Shown here: positions 1 to 25,566 of the stretch, one piece after another
How positions within the stretch are numbered: the stretch's first letter is position 1
How the letters are laid out: every line of letters begins with the position of its first letter
DNA from: an uncultured Thermoplasmatales archaeon
GTDB taxonomy: Archaea > Thermoplasmatota > E2 > UBA202 > DSCA01
Length of the DNA stretch: 64,000 nucleotides
NCBI GenBank assembly: GCA_964514975.1
Contig: CAZESS010000002.1
Coordinates: forward strand, 24,958 to 88,957
Direction of reading: 5' to 3'
Position numbers and translations under genes: made by a program
Notes under the pieces: generated by a model
What the model saw: only the letters and a program-made list of their open reading frames with translations
What the model was told of the DNA's origin: nothing
Databases searched by the model: none

Positions 1-1519
1 CTTCATCGGAAATCGAGATTGTTTTGACGGTAAATTCCTTTTTTATTCGCGGGAATACAAGTCCGTAAGTTATCACGACGCGATTATGGCGCAGGCCACG
101 GTTGCGGTGATATGCTTGGTACATTTCGTTATCGAACAGGATTTGTTGCAACCATTCCCCCATGAATATGGGTTCATCGTTGCCCAAATATCCATCCGCG
201 CTGTTCTGATGTATTCTATGTGCATCGCATTTTTTCGCGATTTCGCGGCTGCAAATTTTCTTCTTTATTTCGTCAATTGGTTTGTATAATAATTTCGCCA
301 TATACTCATGAATCACATCTTCGCTGATTGCATATGTTCCCAAAATAACAAGTGCGTCTTTATCGGCGAATTGGTTGCTGCTGCGAAGGTTACCAAAATA
401 TTCGCCGTTTATCAACGAATCATCGACAACCTCTTTATGCCCGATTATACCGATGTTGCCATCGCCAAATATTTGCCTCAAATGCTGCAAATCAGGAACC
501 AACCAATCGTCAATTGAATCACGATGGTAGATAAAACTTCGCCGTGGTCGATAACCTCTTGGTCGTAACCGATAAACATGCGTGTCCTTGTTTTGCCATT
601 TCGATGTGAATATTTGCACATTGACATCGCGGTTGAAACCAATTTCGCCGTTATATGCTTCCAATAAAAAATGAAAAAACTTGCGATGGAACGTTGCATC
701 AAGAAACACGAGCGGCACACCCTCCTTAACAAGGTCAAATGCATTATAATACAATGGCACGTGATATTCACGGTCGTAATCGTCATATCGCCGCGCCCAC
801 CATAAATAGTCCCAAATATTGGGCGCGCTATTGGAGAGCAAATGCTTTATTTCCTTCTCTGATGCATCGTTTTCTATGGCGGTTCTGACCGCTTGCTGAT
901 GATGACCGCTCACCGCTACCTCACCGATATAATACCACGTGGATGAAGTGAAATCGCCGGTTTCCATTGATGCAATATTATGTTCGCTTTCACCAATCGC
1001 GCGCATCCAATCGACAACGGCATCCCTATCGAATTCGAGCGTGTCCATCGCGATCTTATTTTCGTCGAAGAACGCGATTGTAGGATATGGTTCAATATGC
1101 TTTGTTTTTAGATATTCATACGGCGCGAATACGCGCTCTCGCTCATCGAATTGCTGTTTATATCGGCAATTGCTACGATTACATAATTCACATAAAACAC
1201 CAATAGGCAACCCTCGTTCACGCCGTGCATCAACGCCTTCGTTCCATTCGCATTTGCGGCCAAATCCTTCCCAATGCGAATAGTGGTAATCGCTGATACC
1301 CATATCCGCTATTATCTCGTCGATTGTGTCATGACGGTCGGTAAAATAAAACGCATCGGGCTGCGTTTTCATGTATTGCATAACCGCATAGGTTTTGCCG
1401 ATGCCGGGCTGATGCGCCAAAACGGTTATGTCTGCATCCAAATCGTCAAAATCGACATCCTGCGGCTCGCACATTTCTGTTTCCAAAAACGTTATGCCGT
1501 CGCTGCATGTTTCGCGCAT
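1..1519 (-). CDS. P-loop NTPase, putative Fe-S-cluster (Rad3/XPD-like?) helicase, 3'-truncated by window edge
   Basis: Continuous minus-strand frame from ATG at 1519 (in-frame TAG just upstream) to position 1; not in the ORF track because no stop lies in the window. Walker A 'AHQPGIGKTYAV', Walker B-like 'IAFFDENK', and a Cys4 cluster (C-x20-C-x2-C-x4-C) between them. AT-rich codon usage unlike the GC-rich flanks. Confidence 0.55.
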   Translation of the reverse strand, partial: MRETCSDGITFLETEMCEPQDVDFDDLDADITVLAHQPGIGKTYAVMQYMKTQPDAFYFTDRHDTIDEIIADMGISDYHYSHWEGFGRKCEWNEGVDARRERGLPIGVLCELCNRSNCRYKQQFDERERVFAPYEYLKTKHIEPYPTIAFFDENKIAMDTLEFDRDAVVDWMRAIGESEHNIASMETGDFTSSTWYYIGEVAVSGHHQQAVRTAIENDASEKEIKHLLSNSAPNIWDYLWWARRYDDYDREYHVPLYYNAFDLVKEGVPLVFLDATFHRKFFHFLLEAYNGEIGFNRDVNVQIFTSKWQNKDTHVYRLRPRGYRPRRSFIYHRDSIDDWLVPDLQHLRQIFGDGNIGIIGHKEVVDDSLINGEYFGNLRSSNQFADKDALVILGTYAISEDVIHEYMAKLLYKPIDEIKKKICSREIAKKCDAHRIHQNSADGYLGNDEPIFMGEWLQQILFDNEMYQAYHRNRGLRHNRVVITYGLVFPRIKKEFTVKTISISDE

Positions 1520-1595
1520 TGTATCGTGTTGTTGTGCGTAATGTGGTGGCGATACAAATAACTAATCAATCGCACTTTTGGTATAATAAAGAACA

Positions 1596-2009
1596 TCACA
1601 AGGTTCGTGAGAGCAGGAATAACCATAGCGGGATAAACAATAAGGGAAAAACTGTACCCAACCAAAAATTTGCTGCCGCAAGTATGCCCAATCGTGCAAA
1701 TTTTCTATTTTCACGAGATTGTTTGTAATCTTCATCGAGTTTTTCTATTCTACATTTGATATCTTCAATCTCGCCTCGCTGACGATTCGATACGAACCAA
1801 AAAATTGCCGTAATTACTGTGCCAATTACCGCTATAGCAAAAGAAACTCCGTTTTCTCTTAATGAATCAATTCCAAAAGATGAAATATACGACAAAACGA
1901 GCAGTGATTCAGCGACAAGTAATAAATTTATTCGATTCGTAAAGAGGTTGTCAGCATGTAACAAATATCGCCAACGACGTTCTAATAAATTTTCATCATC
2001 ATCTATCAT
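1596..2009 (-). CDS. small integral membrane protein (3-4 predicted TM helices), unknown function
   Basis: ORF-track 137 aa; hydrophobic stretches 'LLLVAESLLVLSYISSF', 'AIAVIGTVITAIFWFV', 'LGILAAANFWLGTVFPLLFIPLWLFLL'; AT-rich; directly upstream (same strand) of the helicase-like gene. Confidence 0.5.
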   Translation of the reverse strand: MIDDDENLLERRWRYLLHADNLFTNRINLLLVAESLLVLSYISSFGIDSLRENGVSFAIAVIGTVITAIFWFVSNRQRGEIEDIKCRIEKLDEDYKQSRENRKFARLGILAAANFWLGTVFPLLFIPLWLFLLSRTL

Positions 2010-2116
2010 GCCATAATTAATGTAAAACGGTAAAAAAACCTATCGCACATATTCATAAAAAATATAATATCAATTACATTCTCAGAAAAATTTCACGCGC
2101 CGCTTACTACGACATC

Positions 2117-2200
2117 GCGTTGTTTCGCTGCGGACAAAAAACAGTATACGAATCACGACAACGACAACGAATCGGCTTGACGCGCATCGTTGGTGTCGTA
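2117..2200. repeat. 84-bp direct repeat, copy A ('gcgttgtttcgctgcgg...gaatcggcttgacgcgc...')
   Basis: About 85% identical to 3410-3493; lies about 155 bp upstream of the ATG at 2355. Confidence 0.7.
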
Positions 2201-2354
2201 TGTGCAGCATACTTTACATTTAAACCATAGGGTGCAAATAGAAATCATACGATAAACGAGTGATTCATATCAAACAGCGCTTAACTTTTTTATTTAAAAA
2301 ACGTAAATCAAAAATACTATAATTTTGATATACGATACACATTATGTGGTTTAG

Positions 2355-3365
2355 ATGCCGGCAAAAAAATTTAACAGAAATCCTTTCAACGAGAAATTAA
2401 TACATAGATTTTTTTTCGAAACTCTTTATTGCGACAAGCAAAATCGCGATTTACTTGTTCCATCAAACATTAAGCAAGATCTAAAAAAACTAAACCTCGT
2501 TGTTCCCGAAGCATCTATTGTCGAAGGCGGATATCGACCGGATTTTAAATTGTATTTTAAGGGTATGGAAAAAACGGTGGCAGTCGAAATAAAGTGGCAC
2601 TCTAAAGATTTAAAAGAAAATCAAAAAGAAGCTCTTATCGGTGACACGGATACAAATGGAAACAGGGGATACGTTCTGAGTTTTGATGACGAAGATATCG
2701 AGGTTGAACATGTACAAATTGACAAAGAATTATTTGAAAATTGGCTTATCAAGCGAGTTAAATCGCTATGGAATGATGCATATTCCTATAAAATCGAAAA
2801 ACAAATTGGTAAACGAACTTGGATTGTTATTTTGAGGGGAAAATCAATACAAAATTTTCAAAAAATGGTCAAACAACATCGCGATAATTTTTGGGCATTC
2901 CAAAATACTCCGTTTATAATGAAAAATTTATTAGAAATAAAGCATAGAGATGAAATCATTTTCTTATTAGTAAAAGCAAGCGGAAATGAAAGACAGGCAT
3001 TACAGCGAGATTCGAGAGAAAAGTTAGATGTGCTCTCATTCTTTGTCGGCAACATAAAAGAACCTTATGTTATGTATCTGAAAGGCCCTAAAGCAACGTT
3101 TTTTGAGGGCAGGGACGACTTATCGGTCAACAACAGGAAATGGCCTCATTTTATTGAATTTACAGAGGAAGCATATATGAAATTCGAACAAAACGCCTGC
3201 ATAAATAGGAACAACTTTTCAAAATCCCTCAGGAAAAAAATTGCCGATTCATGTAACAAAAAAGGAAAAGGAATTCCAATATTACTTGATGATATTGAAG
3301 CAAACGAACTTAAATCTGAACTTAGACTCGAGTGTAATCGCCTTAATAAGGTAGTTGCAATATAA
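2355..3365 (+). CDS. PD-(D/E)xK (restriction-endonuclease/Hjc/NucS-like) nuclease domain protein with uncharacterised about 200-aa C-terminal domain
   Basis: N-terminal 'EASIVEGGYRPDFKLYF...VAVEIKW' fits the E...PD...(E/V)EIK nuclease signature; 336 aa; AT-rich; bracketed by the 84-bp direct repeats. Confidence 0.5.
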   Translation: MPAKKFNRNPFNEKLIHRFFFETLYCDKQNRDLLVPSNIKQDLKKLNLVVPEASIVEGGYRPDFKLYFKGMEKTVAVEIKWHSKDLKENQKEALIGDTDTNGNRGYVLSFDDEDIEVEHVQIDKELFENWLIKRVKSLWNDAYSYKIEKQIGKRTWIVILRGKSIQNFQKMVKQHRDNFWAFQNTPFIMKNLLEIKHRDEIIFLLVKASGNERQALQRDSREKLDVLSFFVGNIKEPYVMYLKGPKATFFEGRDDLSVNNRKWPHFIEFTEEAYMKFEQNACINRNNFSKSLRKKIADSCNKKGKGIPILLDDIEANELKSELRLECNRLNKVVAI

Positions 3366-3409
3366 CCTGCATACCAAAAAATTTTTTCCGAGTTACTTGC
3401 TTAGATACT

Positions 3410-3493
3410 GCGTTGTTTCGCTGCGGATGAAAAACATTATACGAATCGCGACTTCGACGGCGAATCGGCTTGACGCGCGTCGATAGTGTCGTT
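3410..3493. repeat. 84-bp direct repeat, copy B
   Basis: About 85% identity to 2117-2200; about 153 bp upstream of the RHH gene ATG at 3646. Confidence 0.7.
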
Positions 3494-3645
3494 AGTAGGC
3501 GATAGTTGCCACCAAAACCATGGGTTTGTATGTCGAATTCTACGCGGTTCACGCGGTTTCGTAAGTCGTTGGCATCGTACGCCACATACACGTTCCATAC
3601 AGCGCCGAAGAATTGCTTTTTTATGTGCATAAAGAATCGAGAATC

Positions 3646-3957
3646 ATGGCATCGAAAAAAACCCGTACCACGATTTCGATACCGCGCGATCTGCGCGACG
3701 CGGCGAAGGAAGAGGGCATCAACATATCGCGATTTGTAACCGAGCGATTACGCGAATTTTTCGCAGAAAGACAAATTTTCTCCGGAGCCAGTTACTCGGG
3801 TTCAAATCCCGATATGCCCGTTTGCCGCGACCATAGGGGCCATGGCGGCACTGGAAAGGCAGATAGAGATGGTACAAAAGGATGTGGAGGTTCGGAAGGC
3901 GTACCTCTATCTGCCCCCCGTGTATATCAACCGTACGAGCTATTTAATCATTGTTAA
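3646..3957 (+). CDS. ribbon-helix-helix (CopG/Arc/MetJ-type) DNA-binding protein with low-complexity C-terminal tail
   Basis: 'MASKKTRTTISIPRDLRDAAKEEGINISRFVTERLREFF' has the beta-strand/helix/helix RHH pattern; downstream tail is Gly/Ser/Arg-rich. Confidence 0.55.
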   Translation: MASKKTRTTISIPRDLRDAAKEEGINISRFVTERLREFFAERQIFSGASYSGSNPDMPVCRDHRGHGGTGKADRDGTKGCGGSEGVPLSAPRVYQPYELFNHC

Positions 3958-4164
3958 CATCTGGGCTATGACCATGGATTGCTCGCGGTGTCGTCATCCA
4001 GAAGGCCGATGCCATGGCGAACGAGCAATAATGGCCCGCAGCGCCGGGAAACGTTTATATATGAGTGTGTCTTACGCCCCACCGGGGAAGGGTGAACGCC
4101 TCCACCCTCTTTTTGTGCCTCCCCCTTCCCCATGCCTCCCTTTTTAGCCAGTGACAGGCACGAT

Positions 4165-21560: not shown

Positions 21561-22124
21561 TTGCCCGGCGTGGACATTGTCACCGTTGTATTGATCGCCG
21601 TCGCCCTGGCCATGGACGCCTTCGCGGTCGCCGTTGCCAGCGGGCTCTACATCCACAGGCTGCGTGTCAACCATGCCCTGCGCATCGCGGGTATGTTCGG
21701 CCTGTTCCAGGGAGCGATGCCCCTGGCCGGCTGGCTCGCCGGACGGACAGCGCAGCGGCTCGTGGCGGCAATCGACCACTGGCTGGTGTTCGCGCTGCTG
21801 GCGGGCATCGGCGGAAAAATGGTCTACGAGTCCTGGCGGCTCGACGAACGCCGGGGATTTGACCCGCTGGCCATGTCGTTTTTGCTGCTGCTTTCCATTG
21901 CAACATCCATCGACGCGCTAGCCGTCGGCGTCTCCTATGGCCTGCTCGACGTCGCCGTCGCCACACCCGCCGTTATCATCGGCGCTGTCACCTTTGGGCT
22001 CTCTCTTGCCGGCGTCTACCTGGGCGACCGGGTCGGCCATCTCTTCGAACGCCGCATCGAGGCTCTCGGCGGCGTCATCCTCATCGTTATCGGCCTCCGC
22101 ATACTGATAGAGCATCTGATGTAA
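21561..22124 (+). CDS. mntP: manganese efflux pump MntP
   Basis: 'VALAMDAFAVAVASG' and repeated 'SIDALAVGVSYG' halves typical of MntP/DUF204. Confidence 0.8.
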   Translation: MPGVDIVTVVLIAVALAMDAFAVAVASGLYIHRLRVNHALRIAGMFGLFQGAMPLAGWLAGRTAQRLVAAIDHWLVFALLAGIGGKMVYESWRLDERRGFDPLAMSFLLLLSIATSIDALAVGVSYGLLDVAVATPAVIIGAVTFGLSLAGVYLGDRVGHLFERRIEALGGVILIVIGLRILIEHLM

Positions 22125-22145
22125 GAAAACAGGGTGGAGGAAGGC

Positions 22146-22649
22146 CTACGGACTTTCAAGACCGATAAGCCAAATCGGCACCTGGATAATATACCTCAGA
22201 TGAGGCAGATATTTTTTGACCTTATCGAATCTCATGCTTCCTCGCCAAGTTGGGTCATACTTTTTCTCAATTAATTTTTGAAATTGACGTGTTGTAACTA
22301 TGTAGATACCTACGTCTATCTCGTTTCTGTATGAATAGGAGAGAGTTTGGAATTTCAACAAATCTATTCCCATAAAAGAGGGGTGAGAGAAAGCGACCTC
22401 GACCCCAACCCGGTTTTTCATAAAATCTATCTTTGCAGCGGGCTCATCCTCCGGGGCAAACACGGGCTGTTCGGTTTTCCATCCTTTTCCGGTAAAACTG
22501 TCCTTGAATGCCTGATTTAGATTCGGCCTCGTCATTTCGTTTGGATTCAAATCAATCGTGTCGATAATTTCTTTTACTTCCTGTTTTTGTGCCAGTCGGC
22601 TATTCAAGACTTCTTCTGCAAACCGATACGACCAGTCTCTATATCGCAT
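22146..22649 (-). CDS. BglII/BamHI-fold type II restriction-endonuclease-like protein (orphan; catalytic Gln/Glu position is Ala)
   Basis: 'KIDFMKNRVGVEVAFSHPSF...NEIDVGIYIVTT' parallels BglII 'DIDFGKRDTLVEVQFSNYPF...MKVAIIITKG' and BamHI 'RVGMEFETGNISS...EIDLAIILMP'. AT-rich island; no methyltransferase nearby. Confidence 0.5.
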   Translation of the reverse strand: MRYRDWSYRFAEEVLNSRLAQKQEVKEIIDTIDLNPNEMTRPNLNQAFKDSFTGKGWKTEQPVFAPEDEPAAKIDFMKNRVGVEVAFSHPSFMGIDLLKFQTLSYSYRNEIDVGIYIVTTRQFQKLIEKKYDPTWRGSMRFDKVKKYLPHLRYIIQVPIWLIGLESP

Positions 22650-22947
22650 TATTTCTTTCCCGTTCTAGATAAAGTTTTTCTTGAATGAAATCTGCTGTAA
22701 CCGATGAATATGGAGATTGATATCTCACTGAATTATCTTGCTTAATCTTTTTGACCAAGCCGGCAGAAACCATCTTTTCCAGCGATTTAAACACCGATGC
22801 ACGATATTTGATAGGAAAATTCTCTCCCTCAAGCTCATCCAATATTTCTTGGACGGTTTTTGCCTTGTCGATAATCACTCGAAGGATTTGCCGGGCTGAT
22901 GACAACGACGAGATATCAAGCGTATCCTGAAAGTCCGGTTCTTCCAT
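22639..22947 (-). CDS. winged-helix DNA-binding protein (putative controller/regulator)
   Basis: 'YRASVFKSLEKMVSAGLVKKIKQDNSVRYQS' wHTH pattern; 11-nt overlap with downstream endonuclease-like gene. Confidence 0.45.
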   Translation of the reverse strand: MEEPDFQDTLDISSLSSARQILRVIIDKAKTVQEILDELEGENFPIKYRASVFKSLEKMVSAGLVKKIKQDNSVRYQSPYSSVTADFIQEKLYLERERNNAI

Positions 22948-23038
22948 CTAGTGGACAAATGCTATTAAAAGATCTTAACACTTTGTTTCTTTATAGGAAA
23001 CAAAACATCATTTTTCTACTGGCGATAAAGAACCGGAC

Positions 23039-23910
23039 ATGAACGAGCTCGGCTTGAGTCTGAAATTAAATTGGACATACCCGAATATGGGTGTATTTTA
23101 TTCTGAAAAACCGCCCTTACGAGGAACATTTAATGAGAGACTTGAAAAAGCTAAAAAATTCGGCATCTCCCGCATAGAAATACCCTTTGATCTGGTTCGA
23201 CTAGAAAACGAGGAATATTATCTATTGAATAAAAAAAAATTGGAGACATCCCAGAAAGAGAAGACTTTAAAAGTCTCTACAACACCAGTTGCAATAATAC
23301 CTGTGAGTATATTCTACATACAGACCCGGAGCTAAAACCCCGCCATTACTTAAGATGGAACTCGGAGAAGTGGAGAAATAAGTACCTGAAATCTATCATA
23401 GATTTTGCAGAATTCAACGACCAAGCCCCTTTCGCAGTAGAGTTCCATCCAGGCAGAACGTCAAGAAGCAAAAATCATTTTGAGGATTTTATTACCGATG
23501 CGATTTCAATGTTTAGCGATATCTTCGGAGATAAACGTCCCTATCTTTACATCGAAAACAGAACAAATCTATACATCTCTACAGTCGAAGACATCATTCA
23601 GTTGTATGAGAAAATTCAGGATAGAGTAAGTGGAACTGAAAAGAAGCGTTTCGGATTTAGCATAGATGTTATGCAGCTTTATTCGCAAATTGGAGCAGAA
23701 TCAATCAATGAGCTCCCGAAAATTCCTAGACACGCGATAAAAAACTGGCATATCCATTACCGCCACCAACCACCTAGCATCGATGACCCAATAGATTGGC
23801 GTAAAGTTGTAAACTATATCATGCAAAGTCAGCCGGCCATTGTTTTACCAGAGGTATTTTCAGATCGAGGTGTACAAACCACTCTTGAATTCATCGAAGG
23901 TTTACCATAA
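23039..23910 (+). pseudogene. xylose-isomerase-like TIM-barrel (AP-endonuclease family 2-like) protein, split by frameshift at an A9 tract
   Basis: ORFs 23039-23335 (frame 2) and an open frame 23233-23910 (frame 1; track ORF 23509-23910) join into about 290 aa if the A9 run at 23231-23239 gains one A. 'AVEFHPGRT' and 'FGFSIDVMQLY' resemble Endo IV 'LLNFHPGSH' and 'GVCIDTCHAF'. Confidence 0.45.
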
Positions 23911-23945
23911 TTATTACAATTACATATAACCACTTAACCCTCCCT

Positions 23946-23986
23946 CGATTTTGTTTCAAAAGTTTAACAAATATGTCAAATTAACC
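23946..23986. repeat. about 40-bp direct repeat R2a ('gattttgtttcaaaagtttaacaaatatgtcaaattaacc')
   Basis: About 80% identical to 24097-24137. Confidence 0.55.
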
Positions 23987-24013
23987 GAATGGTAAAACAA
24001 TCATTGCCCTGGC

Positions 24014-24070
24014 CACTAACACCTATATTTCCTCCCATTCTTTGAGGATGCTCTGCCAGTTGAACTCCTC
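24014..24070. repeat. 57-bp direct repeat R1a: duplicated 3' end of gene 25570-26799
   Basis: 56/57 identical to 25561-25617, which encodes the last 17 codons (...EEFNWQSILKEWEEI*) of the membrane gene. Confidence 0.8.
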
Positions 24071-24096
24071 CGCGTGCGGACAACGGCTGCCCCGTG

Positions 24097-24137
24097 ATTT
24101 GTTTGAAAAATTTAACAAAAATGTTAAATTAGTGGAG
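24097..24137. repeat. about 40-bp direct repeat R2b immediately upstream of abiEii-like gene
   Basis: 'gatttgtttgaaaaatttaacaaaaatgttaaattagtgg'; contains TATA-like 'tttaacaaa'. Confidence 0.55.
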
Positions 24138-24149
24138 TGATTATGGGGT

Positions 24150-24968
24150 ATGGCAGTGTGGAATGACATCGTTACGGCTGGCCGGAGCAGCGACCAGCCG
24201 CTCCATCACGTATTCCAGGAGCATCTGCAGAAAACCGTGCTGACGGCGCTCAGCCGGAGAGAGGCGTTCACCGACATCGTGTTCCAGGGTGGGACAGCCC
24301 TCTGCTTCTTCTACGGCAACCCCCGCTTCTCGGAAGACCTCGACTTCGTACGCCGGGGCAGCAGTACAGTAGACCTGACAGCCCACGCCACGGCGGTAGA
24401 AACCTTCGTAGCCGCCATCTATCCCTTCCTCGACGGATGCAGCGTCACGGTCCAAAAAGACACGCGGGAGCTACAGCGGCTCGTGCTCACCACCCGGGGC
24501 GAGGTCACAGAGCAGCGCTGCCGCATCCACCTCGAGCTAGCACACGTTCCATCCTACATGGCAACCCCACGCATCCTCGATCATCCGCCGTTTCACCCTG
24601 CGGTGCAGGTGGAGCAGCCCGAGGAAATCCTGGCGGACAAGCTGGCAGCGCTCGCCCTTCGCCCGTATCTCAAGGGCCGCGACCTCTGGGACATCTACTT
24701 CCTGACCAGGGAAAAAAACATCGATATCCACTGGAATCTGGTGAAGACAAAAATCAGCGATTACAACGGCGACCCGGAGCGGCTTCCTGCAGCCAGCAAA
24801 ACCGTGCAAAACGAGGGTGCACAGGCGCTCGCGGACGAGCTGGCCCGGTTTTTGCCTCCTCGTCTTCACGAGCAGTACCGCTCCAGATTCGACGATATCG
24901 CCGCTCATGTCGCCGCCGTCGCAGCCGCAGCCAGAGACACAATGGAGGAGAACGCCGATGAAGGTTGA
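24150..24968 (+). CDS. AbiEii/DUF1814-family nucleotidyltransferase (type IV TA toxin-like)
   Basis: 'FQGGTALCFFYGNPRFSEDLDF' is the AbiEii nucleotidyltransferase signature; 272 aa. Confidence 0.7.
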   Translation: MAVWNDIVTAGRSSDQPLHHVFQEHLQKTVLTALSRREAFTDIVFQGGTALCFFYGNPRFSEDLDFVRRGSSTVDLTAHATAVETFVAAIYPFLDGCSVTVQKDTRELQRLVLTTRGEVTEQRCRIHLELAHVPSYMATPRILDHPPFHPAVQVEQPEEILADKLAALALRPYLKGRDLWDIYFLTREKNIDIHWNLVKTKISDYNGDPERLPAASKTVQNEGAQALADELARFLPPRLHEQYRSRFDDIAAHVAAVAAAARDTMEENADEG

Positions 24969-25566
24969 CGAATGGCTGGCGTTCTTCCGTCGGCACCGGA
25001 CAAAAAAACTGTTTTCCCTGGCAGATCTCGTCCAGCTCACCGGTATAGACAAGGCGTCGCTCTCGGTCCAGCTCACCCGGCTGATACGGGCCAACATCAT
25101 CCGGCGGGCAGCCCGGCAGTGGTACGAAAACCCGTTCAACCAGCCATCCCGGGAAGACGTCGCCATGGTGCTCCGTCCTCCCGCCTATCTCTCCCTGGAA
25201 TACGCTCTCTCAAAACATGGCATCCTGAGCCAGGCAGCCCGCACGCTCACCCTGGCTACCACACGGCCTCCCTACACATATACCACATCTGATGCAACAT
25301 ACGAATACCACCAGATACGGCGGTCGCTCTTCTGGGGATATAAACAGGAACACGATGTTGCGCTGGCCGAGCCCGAAAAAGCGCTGCTCGACCTCCTCTA
25401 CATACGGCACGTAATGACCGATGAACTGAGCCAGCGCGCCCTGGGGTCGCTCGTCGACGACATGGACCTCGCAGTCATCACCCGGGACAGACTCCGCCGC
25501 TATGCAGACAGATTTCCCCGCGGGGTCAATGAAACGGTGCGCCACCTGACGCCTGCCGTACACTAA
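24958..25566 (+). CDS. AbiEi-like antitoxin/transcriptional regulator (N-terminal wHTH)
   Basis: 'LFSLADLVQLTGIDKASLSVQLTRLIRANIIRR' wHTH; 11-nt overlap with the upstream nucleotidyltransferase gene; about 200 aa. Confidence 0.6.
   Translation: MKVDEWLAFFRRHRTKKLFSLADLVQLTGIDKASLSVQLTRLIRANIIRRAARQWYENPFNQPSREDVAMVLRPPAYLSLEYALSKHGILSQAARTLTLATTRPPYTYTTSDATYEYHQIRRSLFWGYKQEHDVALAEPEKALLDLLYIRHVMTDELSQRALGSLVDDMDLAVITRDRLRRYADRFPRGVNETVRHLTPAVH

Follow-up and report, generated by a model that had tools for sequence, protein, structure and literature searches.

The 64-kb stretch of DNA analysed here (the window) comes from an uncultured Thermoplasmatales archaeon, and its nearest relatives are contigs of uncultured Thermoplasmatales and Thermoplasmata metagenome-assembled genomes. 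An AT-rich islet of 2 kb at 22-24 kb (GC 0.43 and 0.38) stands out from the window's GC content of ∼0.60, bearing out an original prediction made from the letters of the sequence. The islet lies between mntP and an AbiEii/AbiEi pair (24150-25566) and contains three genes: a BglII-type endonuclease gene, which is our main subject, and a winged helix-turn-helix (wHTH) gene, both on the minus strand, and a divergent, split TIM-barrel gene on the plus strand. L-numbers denote genome or metagenome loci; 80 loci bearing the endonuclease gene were fetched from more than 20 phyla and studied together with the window (81 loci), with a visible neighbourhood of ∼16 kb per genome. The features of the islet and its border, with their evidence in brackets, are as follows.

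21561-22124: mntP (PF02659).
22146..22649, minus strand: BglII/BstYI-family PD-(D/E)XK endonuclease gene, 167 residues (PF09195, PDB sequence matches, AlphaFold2/Foldseek, conservation, ratio of non-synonymous to synonymous substitution rates, dN/dS).
22639..22947, minus strand: winged-helix regulator gene (ArsR/TrmB/Lrs14-like), 102 residues (open reading frame, ORF; weak wHTH profile matches; PH1932 match; dN/dS 0.14).
22972..23004, minus strand: operator and promoter element, putative, upstream of the wHTH gene (five-locus alignment, window and shuffle counts, 14 wHTH loci).
23039..23910, plus strand: xylose-isomerase-like TIM-barrel gene (AP_endonuc_2/Endo IV superfamily), ∼285 residues, frameshifted (three-frame translation, L008 orthologue, AlphaFold2/Foldseek).
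23231..23239, plus strand: A9 homopolymer, the +2 frameshift site in the TIM-barrel gene (alignment of the window, L008, L087 and L089).

The 167-residue protein matches PF09195 (Endonuc-BglII) with E=1.5e-34 and 119.5 bits (cutoff 26) over profile positions 2-162 of 163, and a sequence search against crystallised proteins returned BstYI (E=2.6e-6) and BglII (E=7e-3). An AlphaFold2 model built with 121 homologues is of high confidence (pLDDT 92.8, pTM 0.90), and its top 16 Foldseek matches in the PDB are BglII, BstYI, BamHI and OkrAI alone (probability 1.0, query TM-score (TMq) 0.64-0.76), the next match having E=0.13; the BglII/BamHI fold that had been proposed from the sequence is thus supported by the structure check. 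In the HMMER alignment D75 and E84, which lie in the peptide IDFMKNRVGVEVAFSHPSF (residues 74-92), correspond to BglII D84/E93 and BstYI D119/E128, and A86 to BglII Q95 and BstYI Q130, so the Ala reported at the BglII Gln95 position is correctly placed. Further along, H89 aligns with BglII N98 and BstYI K133, and G137-S138 with BglII S141-S142; in specificity-engineering work on BstYI (K133N/S172N), the aligned positions reportedly contact bases.

Conservation was read from an alignment of the 121 homologues. Invariant residues are R9, N16, N45, W57, D75, E84, H89, S91, D96, K99, Q101, Y105, D112, T120, S138 and Y147, with K78 (Lys) and G137 each retained in 119 of 121. Position 60, equivalent to BglII N69 and BamHI E77, is always Gln, Glu or His (Gln in 100, Glu in 20) and is Glu in the window, so that the active-site pattern (N/E)...D...E-x-(Q/E) is represented in part, by conserved E60, D75 and E84, with Ala at the last position. 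That last position, 86, varies freely, with Gly in 49 sequences, Ala in 44, Glu in 13, Ser in 7 and Gln in 5; Gly or Ala therefore account for 93 of 121 (77%), and the Ala would appear to be the norm of the subfamily and not a lesion. D75 and E84 are putative metal ligands. The nuclease gene has dN/dS of 0.05 against L008 (89% amino acid identity) and 0.03 against L007 (95%), dS being saturated at ∼1.1, and is under tighter constraint than flanking genes for a membrane protein (0.24) and an AsnC-like protein (0.21). Two of the explanations first offered for the gene are not supported by these data: a protein catalytically altered through its Ala is at odds with a position 86 that is free while D75 and E84 are invariant and K78 nearly so, and a degenerate remnant is rejected by the full-length ORF, the low dN/dS and the presence of every residue that is invariant in the subfamily. 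Since the metal-binding carboxylates and the recognition loops are the most constrained parts of the protein, the comparison argues for an active, sequence-specific DNA endonuclease.

The protein belongs to a compact subfamily of wide but patchy occurrence. A protein search returned 603 proteins, the best 120 of which are all 159-201 residues long and 49-95% identical, with homologues from Lokiarchaeia, MSBL1, Methanocellales, Clostridia, Paenibacillus, Fidelibacterota and others; the subfamily comprises more than 600 proteins of ∼165-169 residues, 45-60% identical, from many phyla of Bacteria and Archaea. Clustering at 50% gave 10 representatives at E<1e-30 and 291 at E<1e-3, and when one genome for each of 185,579 species was scanned there were 132 confirmed matches, a sporadic distribution. 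The longer relatives (P0141, P0203, P0224, P0200 and others) have PF09195 as their sole domain, with no fusion that hints at function, and among defence and annotation models PADLOC returned generic REase_II models alone and NCBIfam no match for the nuclease.

The subfamily as a whole carries no linked methylase and travels alone. In the window, a motif scan of ORFs of at least 120 residues, which is of limited sensitivity compared with a profile search, found no N6/N4 motif IV or C5 PCQ+ENV pattern apart from four short chance matches, in keeping with the original claim that no methyltransferase lies nearby. A motif scan for DNA methyltransferases within 6 kb either side of the gene at the 81 loci flagged 18 ORFs in 16 loci, none of them adjacent at a plausible methyltransferase length, and Pfam analysis of the ten best candidates confirmed a DNA methyltransferase at three loci only: a D12-class (Dam-like) enzyme 1.0 kb away in L014, an N6_N4 enzyme 1.4 kb away in L019 and, in L039, at a distance of 2.4-3.7 kb. 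Nor is any DNA methyltransferase family among the 25 most frequent Pfam families of the same-strand genes directly beside it (57 upstream, 35 downstream). Classical 209-residue BglII/BstYI-family genes on plasmids served as a positive control, and a dcm gene does occur near them. It had been argued that an active enzyme without a methyltransferase would be lethal and that something must therefore be wrong with this one; with an adjacent methyltransferase at 0 of 81 loci, the solitary state cannot be taken as a sign of damage.

At 55 of 77 loci the gene is AT-richer than its flanks, the median difference being 9 GC points and the largest 30, and it is GC-richer by more than 5 points at two only, as expected of a horizontally moving gene. 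A phage-borne gene is rejected by 0 matches in 50,697 phage genomes and 2 in 2.9 M viral contigs, and a homing endonuclease or transposon by the absence of a conserved flanking motif or repeats in the 80 fetched loci and of any conserved neighbour, the largest non-self cluster of neighbouring proteins covering 7 of 81 loci. Defence-type genes found near it encode PLD/NgoFVII, DUF3427 helicase, Schlafen-like helicase, AbiE and PIN proteins. In four archaeal genomes (Nitrososphaerota, Thermoplasmata, Methanomassiliicoccales) a gene for an SRA-HNH protein, of the 5-methylcytosine-dependent type, follows 1-22 nt downstream on the same strand (L011 8503-9351, L056 8523-9212, L070 8497-9177, L080 8502-9194), which suggests a recurrent two-nuclease operon. 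These SRA-HNH, PLD/NgoFVII and helicase neighbours, the latter two also recurrent, lend weak support to a role among methylase-independent restriction genes.

In the window the nuclease is the second gene of a pair. The wHTH gene that precedes it, as originally described, overlaps it by 11 nt, and overlaps of 1-11 nt recur in the window, L001, L008 and L096; the two genes are probably translationally coupled. The 102-residue product matches wHTH profiles weakly (TrmB, PadR, FUR and HTH_20 at E 0.004-0.03, Sta1/Lrs14 at E 2e-5 to 1e-3), a profile of ten family members matches the ArsR-type regulator PH1932 (E=1.4e-3), and no HTH_3 or HTH_31 match was found, so that the protein is not of the Xre-type C-protein family. 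The wHTH family is small, with 8 clusters.

A five-locus alignment reveals an element upstream of each wHTH member with the invariant core TTTGTTKCC-N5-GGMAACAAA-N3-TTAAGAT. In the window the 23-bp palindrome, TTTGTTTCC-N5-(G/A)G(M)AACAAA, runs from 23004 to 22982, and the invariant TTAAGAT from 22978 to 22972, about -31 to -25 from the wHTH ATG; on its other side, the element precedes the divergent TIM-barrel gene by 35-57 nt. The strict 33-nt pattern matches the window once (22972-23004, minus strand) and 0 of 100 shuffles, and it located one further cassette in metagenomes, while the palindrome alone is present at 14 of 14 wHTH-bearing loci and 0 of 91 others. Because it stands ∼25-31 nt upstream of the ATG, where the TATA box of an archaeal leaderless transcript is expected, TTAAGAT is a putative TATA box, with the palindrome directly against it on the side of the transcription factor B recognition element (BRE); a repressor bound there would be expected to block the TATA-binding protein and transcription factor B. 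An AGATCT (22970-22975) overlaps the invariant TTAAGAT and is kept in L008, L001, L095 and L096; as a site for the nuclease itself it was rejected, not being kept in L087 or L089, and is probably a coincidence.

The hosts as a group give no indication that a shared recognition site is avoided. Across 66-81 host loci, Markov-corrected observed/expected ratios for every palindrome of 4 or 6 bp reveal none that is commonly depleted, the median for GATC being 0.81 and hexamers lying at 0.6-0.8, like generic palindrome avoidance. The window is strongly depleted in GATC (95 observed against 323 expected, 0.29) and has 17 CTAG against 63 expected; GATC depletion also occurs in L008 (0.32) and in ∼15% of other host loci, and is a lineage trait. 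The sites that remain in the window are 95 GATC, 6 AGATCT and 5 GGATCC. Within 8 kb of the gene, each 6-bp palindrome is present in 32 or more of the 81 hosts, and hexamers with a GATC core in 56-71 of 81. Shared avoidance of a site is therefore rejected, as are site-free hosts for sites of up to 6 bp, and an enzyme that cuts an unmodified short palindrome, which is what every characterised relative does, would meet its sites in the host. Three options remain: tight repression, a substrate requirement that host DNA does not satisfy, or an unlinked methylase, though the last fits poorly with a mobile gene spread over more than 20 phyla.

Judged from sequence and predicted structure, and with moderate confidence, the gene, in its variable defence islet, would encode a restriction-type nuclease that stands alone, needs no methylase and is held under autorepression. 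The fuller reading, which we put forward tentatively and at somewhat below even chances, is that of an intact, functional, methylase-independent BglII-fold nuclease that is repressed by the wHTH protein and restricts foreign DNA. The protein would probably be a Mg2+-dependent, sequence-specific endonuclease with the BglII/BstYI/BamHI fold, from a conserved compact subfamily that may spread as an AT-rich, horizontally acquired gene without a cognate methyltransferase. In this Thermoplasmata lineage it would have become the second gene of a two-gene operon whose first gene encodes a winged-helix repressor, predicted to bind the palindrome next to the putative TATA/BRE in front of its own gene. 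Nuclease levels would thereby stay low and self-limited, much as they do under the controller protein of restriction-modification (R-M) systems. Foreign DNA could then be restricted without self-methylation. The host would most likely be spared through a feature absent from its own DNA, such as a base modification recognised in the manner of Type IIM/IV enzymes, with wHTH repression as a possible second safeguard.

Several observations weigh against this reading. At the third active-site position (BamHI E113, BglII Q95) the subfamily keeps no fixed residue, which may mean a different chemistry, and Pfam and the AlphaFold2 model show a single-domain protein of 167 residues with no modification-reader domain. 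Most subfamily members have no wHTH gene, which means that repression is not a general solution to self-toxicity, and the nuclease gene is dispensable, being split by an insertion sequence in L087 and reduced to a stump in L099 and L100. With ∼16 kb in view, an unlinked methylase may lie elsewhere in each genome. In Acidobacteria the gene's neighbourhood with ribonucleotide reductase looks like vertical persistence more than a defence island.

A broader proposition, which we consider possible but doubtful, is that the BglII-like proteins of ∼167 residues form a widespread, uncharacterised class of stand-alone nucleases without a methyltransferase, for example modification-dependent (Type IIM/IV) enzymes with a two-carboxylate site, and that the Thermoplasmata wHTH-operator unit is a ‘socket’ which also drives an Endo IV-like TIM barrel, HNH, NurA/HerA and GHKL ATPase genes.

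It is unlikely, though worth serious attention, that the pair is instead a suicide (abortive-infection) or toxin-antitoxin-like module, in which the nuclease would cut ordinary DNA, including that of the host, with the wHTH protein or another repressor as its off-switch until infection or loss of the cassette. The coupled, overlapping regulator-nuclease operon with its autoregulatory operator would suit such a module, as would the AbiE and VapBC-type neighbours and the small HTH genes (Xre or TrmB type) upstream of the nuclease at several other loci. Most of the 81 loci, however, have no HTH neighbour, many of the genes lying directly behind housekeeping genes, and the wHTH family, of 8 clusters, also occurs without an intact nuclease (L089, L099). 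No conserved antitoxin-like protein-protein partner is found, and the pairing expected of a type II toxin-antitoxin system is not seen: the wHTH gene accompanies the nuclease in a small Thermoplasmata-type group only, and the 81 loci share no conserved neighbour.

We regard as distinctly unlikely a Type IIP enzyme with a cognate methyltransferase, possibly a persistent orphan, whose gene lies in another part of the genome (a ‘separated’ R-M system). Such arrangements are documented for some solitary restriction enzymes (Ershova et al. 2012, PMC3488263). The recognition-loop residues of the subfamily are conserved as in isoschizomers, methyltransferases do lie 1 kb (L014) and 1.4 kb (L019) from the gene, and GATC is depleted in the window. 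Yet the motif scan found no methyltransferase in the window, none is adjacent to the gene at the 81 loci from more than 20 phyla, and one lies within 6 kb at three only; a mobile, AT-rich gene could not count on the right unlinked methyltransferase in each new host, and the depletion of GATC is lineage-specific, with no palindrome commonly depleted across hosts.

A catalytically dead derivative acting as a sequence-specific DNA binder or regulator is very unlikely. The Gly or Ala that most of the subfamily has at the BamHI E113/BglII Q95 position is what this explanation calls for, but BglII itself has a non-acidic Gln there, and the invariance of D75 and E84, the near-invariance of K78 and the restriction of position 60 to Gln, Glu or His would be unexpected without catalysis. 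We give about as little credence, and if anything less, to a housekeeping or repair nuclease (a domesticated fold of the MutH/Vsr kind): conservation across domains is very high, NUDIX, methyladenine glycosylase and RmuC genes occasionally lie nearby and the acidobacterial genes keep a stable place beside ribonucleotide reductase, against which stand the sporadic distribution, the AT-richness of the gene relative to its hosts, its inactivation by an insertion sequence or truncation in relatives and the want of a conserved repair partner. A pseudogene decaying after methylase loss, to which the AT-rich islet and the frameshifted TIM-barrel neighbour might point, has next to no chance given the full-length ORF with its strong purifying selection and complete set of invariant residues.

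Comparison with characterised systems sets the proposed stand-alone nuclease in context. Like the Type IIP enzymes BglII (AGATCT) and BstYI (RGATCY), it has the PF09195 domain, the fold, a D-x8-E core with DFxK and the recognition positions, and an N-terminal Y-x-x-A-E-E-[IV]-L-N motif that we take to be shared with BglII. It differs from them in its length (167 residues against 223 in BglII and 203 in BstYI, without their C-terminal extension of ∼50 residues), in its third active-site residue (Ala/Gly in place of Gln), in the absence of a cognate methyltransferase and Xre-type C protein, and in a subfamily identity of ∼50% across domains of life, which is untypical of restriction endonucleases. 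OkrAI (3odh), a minimal BamHI isoschizomer, is described in its published account as a trimmed enzyme that still cuts a specific site (PMC3025578); it resembles the nuclease in structure (TMq 0.64-0.66) at 16-17% sequence identity but retains an acidic third residue of the BamHI type and is part of an R-M system. R.Nph3I (RGATCY), the only characterised new PF09195 enzyme we found in the literature, also has its own methylase.

The layout of the operon matches that of C-protein R-M operons (C.BglII, C.PvuII): the regulator gene comes first and overlaps the nuclease gene, and the conserved palindromic operator in front of it implies autoregulation of both genes. Here, though, the regulator is an ArsR/TrmB-like wHTH and not an Xre HTH protein, the operator is unrelated to C-boxes, there is no methylase to be timed and the promoter is archaeal. 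The Type IIM/IV enzymes (DpnI, SRA-HNH, Mrr) need no methylase and occur in defence islands, as is proposed for the nuclease, and SRA-HNH genes lie downstream of it at four archaeal loci; they usually recognise modified DNA through a reader domain (SRA, EVE, wH and others), whereas the nuclease has no recognisable modification-binding domain. Solitary restriction enzyme genes as such are already known, and the published explanations are that the methyltransferase is distant, the gene a fragment, the enzyme methyl-directed or its function changed (Ershova et al. 2012, PMC3488263); those cases come mostly from orthologous groups that normally have a methyltransferase, whereas here the entire subfamily is solitary, full length and strongly selected.

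We found no description of this compact solitary subfamily in the literature. What is new relative to the label ‘BglII/BstYI family type II restriction endonuclease’ is a compact, systematically solitary and conserved subfamily with a free third position and, in this lineage, a dedicated putative wHTH repressor with its conserved operator, and the label should not be read as evidence of an R-M system when it is attached to a solitary gene. The gene in the window is a real, moderately unusual defence-type gene. If active without a methylase, the subfamily would extend methylation-independent restriction by a new lineage of enzymes; it could provide a new specificity or a modification-dependent reagent of 167 residues, and would show that the BamHI/BglII active site can do without its third ‘catalytic’ position. 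The wHTH-operator cassette offers a compact, testable case of archaeal transcriptional control over a potentially self-toxic nuclease.

Around the wHTH gene the cassette is modular, and its variants can be set out as follows.

Window: TIM-barrel gene present (frameshifted), wHTH gene present, BglII-like gene present; AbiE.
L008: TIM-barrel gene present, wHTH gene present, BglII-like gene present; no AbiE.
L087/L088: TIM-barrel gene present, wHTH gene present, BglII-like gene split by a DDE transposase at about codon 48.
L089: TIM-barrel gene present, wHTH gene present, no BglII-like gene.
L001: no TIM-barrel gene, wHTH gene present, BglII-like gene present; divergent HNH gene.
L095: no TIM-barrel gene, wHTH gene present, BglII-like gene present; PIN gene.
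L096-L098: no TIM-barrel gene, wHTH gene present, BglII-like gene present; GHKL-ATPase-like gene of 605 residues upstream; AbiE and VapBC-like genes.
L099/L100: no TIM-barrel gene, wHTH gene present, BglII-like stump of 56 codons; divergent NurA-HerA.

The wHTH gene and operator are the constant part, the nuclease a usual but not obligatory cargo and the TIM-barrel gene optional. The pair belongs to a variable defence islet bordered by mntP and a gene for a membrane protein; its neighbours there are AbiE in the window and VapBC-like, GHKL-ATPase or TIM-barrel genes in relatives. In L087 (510-2706, Ga0209164_1000672) the insertion sequence that splits the BglII-like gene carries a DDE_Tnp_1 transposase, and the wHTH and TIM-barrel genes are intact. 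Beside the wHTH-operator unit lie, in L096 (3126-4943), the gene for the 605-residue protein, which has a weak GHKL/HATPase_c match, and in L099 (2283-4897) the divergent NurA-HerA pair. The arrangement suggests that the wHTH regulator is a common socket for different nuclease or ATPase genes.

The TIM-barrel gene had been proposed as a nuclease-like partner of the pair, and of this the barrel stands. An AlphaFold2 model (pLDDT 89.5) has ketose 3-epimerases as its top Foldseek matches (TMq ∼0.6), with Endo IV and APN1 lower (0.48-0.54). The family is rare (9 clusters); one member, P0128, passes the PF01261 AP_endonuc_2 threshold (34.8 bits, cutoff 31.1), and the window copy itself has no Pfam match. 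Inspected by eye, the invariant residues H77, H120, E156, D193, H221, H223 and H226 on the barrel strands resemble the ligand set of Endo IV, and sugar epimerases are the closest structures; by its model the protein is probably a xylose-isomerase-like TIM barrel, and ‘nuclease-like’ stays putative. A joint system with the pair, also proposed, finds weak support: the TIM-barrel gene accompanies the pair in 3 of about 8 cassette variants, but it also occurs without the nuclease, in defence or insertion-sequence contexts (L090, L092), and is frameshifted here. The frameshift of +2, which the original description overlooked, results from A9 in the window (23231-23239) against A7 in the L008 orthologue, which is intact at 285 residues; with two A removed, the window copy becomes an ORF of 290 codons without further stops, 72% identical to L008. 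As the ORF has no other defect, the frameshift would be either a homopolymer sequencing error or a recent event; very recent inactivation and slippage-based switching are both candidates.

Farther along the window, the AbiEii (toxin) gene precedes the AbiEi (antitoxin) gene at 24150-25566, the usual order of AbiE modules being the reverse. The module is missing at this place in L008 and is found in L096. An AT-rich, promoter-like element of 34 nt, TTTGTTTGAAAAATTTAACAAAAATGTTAAATTA, stands just upstream of AbiEii (24098-24131) with a second copy 148 nt farther upstream (23950-23983); L096 has a single copy in the stretch read. The first AT-rich islet of the window (1-4000, GC 0.33-0.44), in which there is no methyltransferase either, contains an ORF of 336 residues (2355-3365, plus strand) without a significant Pfam match, in which a D...E-I-K stretch (VAVEIKWHSK) is by eye reminiscent of PD-(D/E)XK nucleases.

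Two further observations concern relatives of the nuclease. In five acidobacterial loci (L059, L073, L075, L078 and L085; Acidobacteria/Terriglobia) a class II ribonucleotide reductase gene lies within a few kb, the nuclease gene being mostly just downstream. On plasmid pBcl1 of [Bacillus] caldolyticus NEB414 (L103, 3043-3213) an annotated fragment of 56 residues is 54% identical to subfamily residues 97-165; this species is presumably the source of BclI (TGATCA).

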